64,000 nucleotides of DNA, taken from Octopus vulgaris. Taxonomy: Eukaryota. Below, in pieces: positions 21,701 through 22,569 of the stretch (position 1 is its first letter; each line of letters starts with the position of its first letter). The DNA lies in NCBI GenBank assembly GCA_951406725.2, contig OX597830.1, forward strand, positions 9,610,001 through 9,674,000, in the 5' to 3' direction. The notes under the pieces were generated by a model. That model was not told the origin of the DNA. It ran no database searches and saw nothing but the letters and a program-made list of their open reading frames with translations. The position numbers and the translations under genes were made by a program.

Positions 21701-22326
21701 CAAGGATCGGTTTACGTAGACACTTGAGGGTGTGCCACTCTTTCTCATGATCCGTGGACACAAAGGAACTGCTATACTTCATCATCCTCACCACCACTAC
21801 CGCACGCTCACCCATACATATATCTCTTACTTAACCCTAATCACACACACACACACACACACAAACACACATATATATATATATAAATATATATATATAT
21901 ATATATATATATATATATATATATATATATATATATATATATATATATATATATATATATATATATATATATATATATATATATATATATATATATATAT
22001 ATATAATATATATATATAAATATATATATAAATATATATATATATATATAAATATATATATATATATATATATATATATATATATATATATATATATATA
22101 TATATATATATATATATATATATATATATATATATATATATATATATATATATATATATATATATATATATATATATATATATATATATATATATATATA
22201 TATATATATATATATATATATATATATATATATATATATAATATAATTCGAGACAAAACCACTATTTTGCAAAACAAACAAGGAAGGCAAACTTCATAAC
22301 TTAAAACAGATTAGGAGATCGAAAAT

Positions 22327-22369
22327 CCACCTGACGAATGTCATTGAAGACATGAAACGATTGTAGTGG
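22327..22369 (+). ncRNA. Intact minimal type-I hammerhead ribozyme
   Basis: CCAC-CTGACGA-ATGTC-ATTGAA-GACAT-GAAAC-GATT-GTA-GTGG: canonical core, stem I CCAC/GTGG, 5-bp stem II, GUA cleavage triplet. Confidence 0.85.
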
Positions 22370-22569
22370 CGGATTTCTTTATATTAAAAATTTTTATGTA
22401 TTGATTAAGTTTTTCCTTGTTTGGTTTGCAAAATAGTGGTTTTGTCTCTAATTAATATTATATAATATTTTACTATAAAATTGGATTCAATCCTAAATCT
22501 GATTTTTCCCTGTAAATTTGGATTTATTCCCTAATATTTATTATTATATATATATATATATATATATAA

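Follow-up and report, generated by a model that had tools for sequence, protein, structure and literature searches.

A gene-less island between TA tracts

The window analyzed here, 64,000 nucleotides of Octopus vulgaris DNA, contains a gene-less island of about 300 bases, flanked on both sides by (TA)n tracts, that carries a hammerhead ribozyme motif together with an inverted repeat. In the orientation of the hammerhead, the parts of the island are an inverted arm, a junction, the hammerhead, and a direct arm ending at 22454, after which 93 nt reach the TA tract at 22547. The (TA)n array on the left (21871-22243) is the likely insertion target, and no target-site duplication is discernible. 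The inverted arm (22244-22285, minus strand) is a partial inverted copy of the element's short 3' end. The inversion junction (22286-22320, plus strand) keeps 24-36 nt of direct copy upstream of the hammerhead core; only a 4-bp hairpin (22283-22295), without a long palindrome, is found there. A type I hammerhead follows (22321-22378, plus strand; core at 22331-22337 and 22354-22357, cut site after A22365). The direct arm (22413-22454, plus strand) extends to the short 3' end, which lies 89 nt beyond the cut site, and an AT-only stretch comes next. Beyond it, the one-sided 93-nt extension (22455-22547, plus strand) terminates at the long 3' end, which abuts (TA)n and lies 182 nt from the cut site.

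A sequence-only reading of this DNA had described the upstream arm as a near-exact reverse complement of the downstream one, and this is borne out for 35 of the 36 bases between 22250-22285 and 22413-22448, the downstream end falling at 22448 and not at 22449. The repeat runs outward to 22244 and 22454 and, if a 3-nt gap is accepted, may run inward to 22294 and 22407, giving an inverted arm of 42 nt, perhaps 51-63 nt. Its inverted-repeat score of 75 was reached by none of 1000 dinucleotide shuffles (maximum, 33). The two arms differ by substitutions at 2 of 42 positions, which indicates that the insertion is not recent. Both are bounded by TA, an uninformative flank inside (TA)n, and an exact search with 28 nt of the arm in bacterial and archaeal genome contigs gave no match, as expected for animal DNA. 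The inverted piece had been taken for a copy of the element's own tail. In the terminology of Penelope-like elements (PLEs), the tail is an extension found at one end only, so the tail here is 22455-22547, and the inverted piece duplicates the part of the body that immediately precedes this tail.

The earlier descriptions of the island as non-coding and inserted in (TA)n both hold, the longest stop-free run being 41 aa. Pfam, applied to 11 other ORFs of the window in search of host exons, returned no match (0/11), and a sigma-70 promoter scan, which is irrelevant to a eukaryote, stayed at chance level. Unrelated repeats elsewhere in the window include a mariner-type transposase fragment (12902-13201, plus strand; PF01359), a LINE fragment with zf-RVT (63296-63993, minus strand; PF13966), an RT-tail-like ORF with no Pfam match (6434-6946, minus strand), and an abundant SINE-like family of about 390 bp with a central microsatellite, whose copies are 85-97% identical (4870-5257, 7773-8152, 29704-30087, 44402-44813, 49907-50322, and 62664-63044). 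At 47404-47790 and 60806-61180 lie two TA-flanked repeats, presumably Helitron-like, that are related to each other: their starts are nearly identical and their ends similar.

A related piece that had been noticed near 22860-22970 was located at 22856-22968. This second unit has the same two outer ends as the first, joined at a different inner junction, and it contains neither a hammerhead core nor a second arm. It is composed of an inverted short-end arm (22856-22897, minus strand; about 81% identical to the first unit's arm over 43 nt), a piece that may be what is left of the hammerhead's loop 2, helix II, and GAA (22896-22911, plus strand), and the long 3' end, or tail (22912-22968, plus strand; 84% identical to 22492-22547 over 58 nt). 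The score of the putative remnant, whose bounds were chosen post hoc, was reached by 15 of 2000 shuffles. The second unit may have inserted independently, with another breakpoint, or be a copy that suffered a deletion, and two copies cannot decide between these. It is the only other copy of the family in the 64 kb, and its core is missing; within that distance the island's hammerhead has no partner copy.

Between the two units lies a fragment of a different family (X; 22566-22810, plus strand) that carries a degenerate hammerhead with a long helix II and terminates at its short end. Two relatives at 56445-57197 run 100-140 nt beyond the point where this fragment stops, and family X thus has the same pattern of short and long ends without terminal repeats. 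The island at 56445-57197 comprises three differently truncated family X pieces.

The hammerhead motif and its predicted folding

All hammerhead core nucleotides are present (CUGACGA at 22331-22337, GAAA at 22354-22357, and GUA at 22363-22365), and the motif at 22321-22378 matches the type I core definition (CUGANGA, GAAA, UH). Three helices can form around this core, in agreement with the earlier placement of the hammerhead at 22327-22369, but they are not the minimum-energy fold. Helix I consists of 4 bp, a 3-nt bulge, and another 4 bp; helix II has 5 bp (22338-22342/22349-22353) and is closed by A10.1-U11.1; and helix III has 2 bp and a GAUU loop, within an 8-nt stretch that can pair with itself, two of the pairs being G-U wobbles. 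A strict hammerhead descriptor matches once in the window, and any match at all appeared in 1 of 200 shuffled windows. Low-complexity surroundings could in principle yield such features by chance match or assembly artefact, but this is extremely improbable given the shuffle counts (0/1000 for the repeat and 1/200 for the hammerhead), the substitutions between the arms, and the existence of a diverged relative; a chance origin is rejected on the shuffle counts.

The hammerhead had also been called canonical, a description that fits the core and little beyond it. The canonical metazoan geometry (helix I of 6 bp, helix II of 4 bp, and G10.1-C11.1) is absent from the motif. Canonical metazoan type I hammerheads typically have a U at position 1.7, associated with loop 1-loop 2 contacts; this U is absent here, and helix I carries the 3-nt bulge. 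The pair at 10.1-11.1 is A-U, and G10.1-C11.1 is called highly conserved in published work (PMC4209133). Rfam reported no hammerhead family at the gathering score or at E<=10, only chance miRNA matches on the TA tracts, and it also misses the other intact-core hammerhead motifs of the window.

The predicted minimum free energy (MFE) fold buries the hammerhead core, and the enclosing arms give no rescue of helix III (pair probability 0.007). In nearest-neighbor folding, which takes no account of tertiary contacts or of help from proteins, the active monomer is predicted at 7.5 kcal/mol above the MFE, compared to 1.6-2.3 kcal/mol for the other intact-core motifs of the window. The active dimer is predicted at 4.4 kcal/mol above two monomers, slightly better than the values for two minimal motifs at 35275 and 49258 (+5.1 and +6.3, respectively), which are the true min-HHRs of the window. 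Among motifs from fetched loci, three at locus L002 give -3.8 to -9.5 in the dimer test, and one at L003 is as poor as that of the island. The folding model thus predicts a ribozyme that would cleave weakly at best. Published precedents speak against this prediction. Monomer cleavage at 0.1-0.8 per min is possible for invertebrate hammerheads whose helix III has 2 bp, retrozyme hammerheads from coral and mussel cleave as monomers, and cleavage of an axolotl motif with a helix III of 2 bp reached 22% in an hour (PMC7229834). A PLE hammerhead required its protein for cleavage (PMC11167929).

The sequence-only reading had put this motif forward as the best candidate for an active ribozyme, a choice that the folding predictions do not favor. 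Around a dozen hammerhead-like motifs occur in the 64 kb window; a lenient scan gave 27 candidates, four of them with an intact core. The motif at 50620 on the minus strand has the best predicted active fold in the window, at 1.6 kcal/mol for the monomer and -8.6 for the dimer, and on these model energies it is a better pick for a ribozyme assay than 22321-22378. It lies in a TA-bounded island (50431-50836, minus strand); its helix III is a perfect 8-nt palindrome, its helix I is rich in GC, and its loop 2 is long. Several families contribute additional hammerheads, minimal or degenerate, at 3204-3696, 17788, 48686, 35275, 49258, 5437, and 27217; both arms at 3204-3696 contain a hammerhead, and a short repeat interrupts the center.

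Recurrence of the layout and its likely origin

The window contains 95 TA-bounded islands, of which 25 show any inverted match and seven, selected by eye from the 25, are compact with arms at the TA edge. Arm lengths in these seven range from 36 to 188 nt and unique centers from 5 to 127 nt, several centers of only 5-7 nt being hairpin-like. One end carries an extra 42, 73, 93, or 110 nt in four of the islands, and the other three are near symmetric. Islands without a hammerhead occur in (TA)n at 18013-18360, 57776-57993, 58114-58268, and 51233-51443, with arms that are 97-100% identical and one-sided extensions of 110, 42, 73, and 0 nt, respectively. Three of the four asymmetric islands have neither hammerhead nor ORF, so it is the layout that identifies them as putative PLEs. 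Of seven short ends compared, six lie in AT-rich context, an observation of little weight because the genome itself is so rich in AT.

The same layout accompanies a PLE ORF at locus L002, the one with usable end anatomy among four loci of relatives fetched from genome contigs (L001, L003, and L004 have none). There, a near full-length element with a Hydra-type ORF lies between TA tracts; it has a hammerhead on its 3' side, and its 3' end is repeated in inverted orientation on its 5' side. The ends of this ORF-bearing element are symmetric, and the adjoining TA tracts hold two hammerhead units that lack an ORF and are longer at one end by 65 and 68 nt. The stretch 1119-6082 of L002 comprises these units and the element itself, a Hydra PLE of animal type into which a long inverted-repeat element (1598-2940) has intruded. 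The L002 contig belongs to a bacterial genome assembly, probably as host contamination, and the same applies to L001, L003, and L004.

This link to a PLE ORF bears on whether 22246-22452 could be a MITE-like DNA transposon with terminal inverted repeats and a TA duplication, in which the hammerhead would be incidental and the 93-nt piece separate. TA does bound both arms, and the window does hold the mariner-type fragment, but TA flanks carry no information inside (TA)n, the second unit joins one arm to the tail without a second arm, and family X has its short and long ends without terminal repeats. We regard such a transposon as very unlikely.

The island had further been proposed to be a minimal complete unit, which the observed variability does not support: the second unit pairs the same outer ends with another junction, arms and centers vary widely between islands, and L002 has the layout on a near full-length element. 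These same observations fit variable 5' truncation. The varied arm and center lengths also weigh against a fixed unit of about 300 bp, non-autonomous and comparable to a retrozyme or SINE, that would be transcribed, self-cleave, and be mobilized in trans by a PLE protein. Such a unit would fit the intact core and lack of an ORF, the order of arm, possible hammerhead remnant, and tail in the second unit (which could be a deleted copy), and the direct copies in several short units, whose starts lie a short distance before the hammerhead; the literature also describes PLE derivatives that are non-autonomous and retrozyme monomers that occur alone. However, self-cleavage at 22365 would cost the unit its core and left arm, and the arms already differ from each other. 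In retrozymes the repeats are arranged head to tail in tandem, whereas the island is single and inverted; a retrozyme is rejected on this ground, and a fixed unit in general seems to us improbable.

Taken together, these observations make it reasonably probable, in our judgment, that the island is one dead, 5'-truncated Penelope-like retrotransposon insertion with a ribozyme that is predicted to be weak at best. Its layout matches published PLE insertions, as had been suggested from the inverted partial copy at the 5' side: PLE insertions have an inverted 5'-truncated copy and a tail at one end only (PMC8557442; PMC3846280), and the island has such a copy, a one-sided tail of 93 nt, and, close to the 3' end, a hammerhead in sense orientation. 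Hydra is the likely clade; nearly all of its elements lie in (TA)n (PMC8557442), a preference that the island shares. Neptune is also a candidate, and the assignment is unsure because the helix III stretch is 8 nt here versus 9-10 nt in all 25 Hydra hammerheads of File S2, and because Neptune also targets microsatellites, (TA)n by hypothesis; a (TA)n preference is described for Naiad as well (PMC8557442).

A two-ended insertion could account for this anatomy. The GIY-YIG/RT protein of a (TA)n-targeting family, probably of the Hydra clade, would cut a TA array. One target end would prime cDNA at the long RNA end (22547), with about 250 nt copied through the hammerhead before synthesis stops; the other would prime at 22454, 93 nt upstream and beside the AT-only stretch, with about 40-60 nt copied. 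Head-to-head joining of the two cDNAs would then give arm (-), hammerhead, arm (+), and tail, the hammerhead being a passenger copied from uncleaved RNA. Priming from two ends in this manner resembles L1 twin priming, except that the two pieces overlap here. The palindromic helix III would suit a double hammerhead on tandem transcripts, a design to which self-pairing helix III is linked in published work, but a lone copy could not form one in cis. In vitro, the anole (lizard) PLE PAc cuts AT-rich DNA and extends both strands, and its RT starts at two sites that bound the tail without requiring cleavage by its own hammerhead (PMC11167929).

The extension of both target strands by PAc speaks against a variant of the PLE origin in which the inverted arm arises by self-priming or fold-back on an antisense template and not from a second target end. 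Self-priming has been proposed for PLE head-to-head repeats (PMC3846280), and both the hairpin-like centers of several islands and the 4-bp hairpin at the junction are compatible with it. The arms of the island, however, are 85-127 nt apart with no long palindrome at the junction, and the left arm directly abuts (TA)n, with an end point that is found again in the second unit. We therefore hold this route to be rather unlikely.

Several findings count against our preferred explanation of a dead PLE insertion, among them the symmetry of the ends in three of the seven islands and in the ORF-bearing element of L002, and a tail longer than described ones. In addition, no ORF is linked to the family, and the second unit could be a deleted copy of a fixed unit. 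That PLEs of the Hydra type exist in this genome is shown by a separate 5'-truncated element in the window (8255-9781, plus strand), which has a broken RT thumb plus GIY-YIG ORF (8255-9370) and then a 3' region to 9781. GIY-YIG is matched at E=0.0036, below Pfam's cut-off, and the CxxC and CxH arrangement is seen in ORF 8777-9370. Stops interrupt the reading frame of this element, a 45-nt palindrome marks its 5' break (8233-8277), and visual inspection suggests a degenerate hammerhead with a long helix II near 9577. An exhaustive search gave 2244 relatives of its GIY-YIG ORF (a word-indexed search scored none of 788 candidates), and the long relatives have DKT, RWR, and CxC-type linkers, which are Hydra-clade marks; Pfam gave no match for five of these long relatives (0/5). 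The island shares no sequence with the 3' region of this element or with any of the four fetched loci, and an RT plus GIY-YIG ORF linked to the island's family was found neither in the window nor in those loci, nor is there an ORF in the island copy itself.

It is also conceivable, though we think it unlikely, that the 250-nt segment from hammerhead to tail is a gene-less, non-tandem parasite of Hydra-type PLEs, with inverted caps that would come from two-strand priming at two fixed RNA sites 93 nt apart. If so, (TA)n-targeting PLEs would have long, family-specific tails (42-140 nt in the window and L002) and not tails of 30-40 bp, and such islands would document, across hundreds of small natural substrates in the genome, priming on two strands at two sites. 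As a dead PLE insertion, the island is one more truncated PLE end in a genome rich in them, and its value is the modest one of a compact example of a two-ended insertion footprint.

Comparison with known systems

The island resembles metazoan non-LTR retrozymes in its type I hammerhead with a 2-bp helix III and tetraloop, its length of about 300 bp, its low GC, its lack of an ORF, and its probable PLE origin (PMC7229834; bioRxiv 10.64898/2026.07.22.740005). Unlike retrozymes as described in these sources, it is not a head-to-tail tandem and has an inverted arm and a one-sided tail, and because it holds a single hammerhead, no unit-length circle can be cut from it. With min-HHR, it shares a PLE-borne type I motif, expected action as a dimer, and a low expected activity; its motif differs in having a loop 3 and in lacking both G10.1-C11.1 and a bulged base after A9 (PMC4209133).

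Penelope/Poseidon elements with an inverted pLTR (PMC3846280), including PAc (PMC11167929), likewise combine a head-to-head copy, a one-sided extension, and an AT-rich target. The island departs from their published descriptions in its 93-nt tail versus 30-40 bp, in the absence of a direct tandem pLTR, and in having no discernible target-site duplication.

The closest resemblance is to Hydra-clade PLEs such as Hydra-1_Obim and Penelope-13_HM, which share the (TA)n target, the sense 3' hammerhead, the U before GAA, the palindromic helix III, and the 5' inverted copy, the last noted for Penelope-13_HM (PMC8557442). By our own count, 17 of the 25 published Hydra-clade hammerheads in File S2 have this U, as does the island motif, and the one Hydra-clade hammerhead from Octopus in the same file also has A-U at the base of helix II. 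The protein motifs of the clade are RWK, DKT, CxCX5C, CxxC, and CxH. The island differs from these elements in its lack of an ORF, its 8-nt helix III, its long end at 182 nt, and the absence of a consensus-file match: six short island motifs gave none (0/6) in the published Naiad, Chlamys, and Hydra consensus files, in which line breaks could hide matches.

The short end of the island, at 89 nt, is within the cut-site-to-3'-end range of 30-153 nt for 23 Hydra-clade families (PMC8557442). These distances fall at 30-70 nt in 12 families and at 88-153 nt in 11, from a list that leaves out two of 25 rows (355 and 2623 nt) and in which curators set the ends; this bimodality hints, weakly, at two ends. 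Described PLE tails measure 30-40 bp, and we found no longer ones in open-access article text and a small part of the supplements. If tails of 40-140 nt were typical of (TA)n-targeting families, the two-start-site model would extend from one lizard element to another clade, and the curators' 3' ends for such families would need revising. Tail length, 93 nt here and 42-140 nt in the neighbors versus 30-40 bp, is the only feature of the island outside the descriptions that we found.
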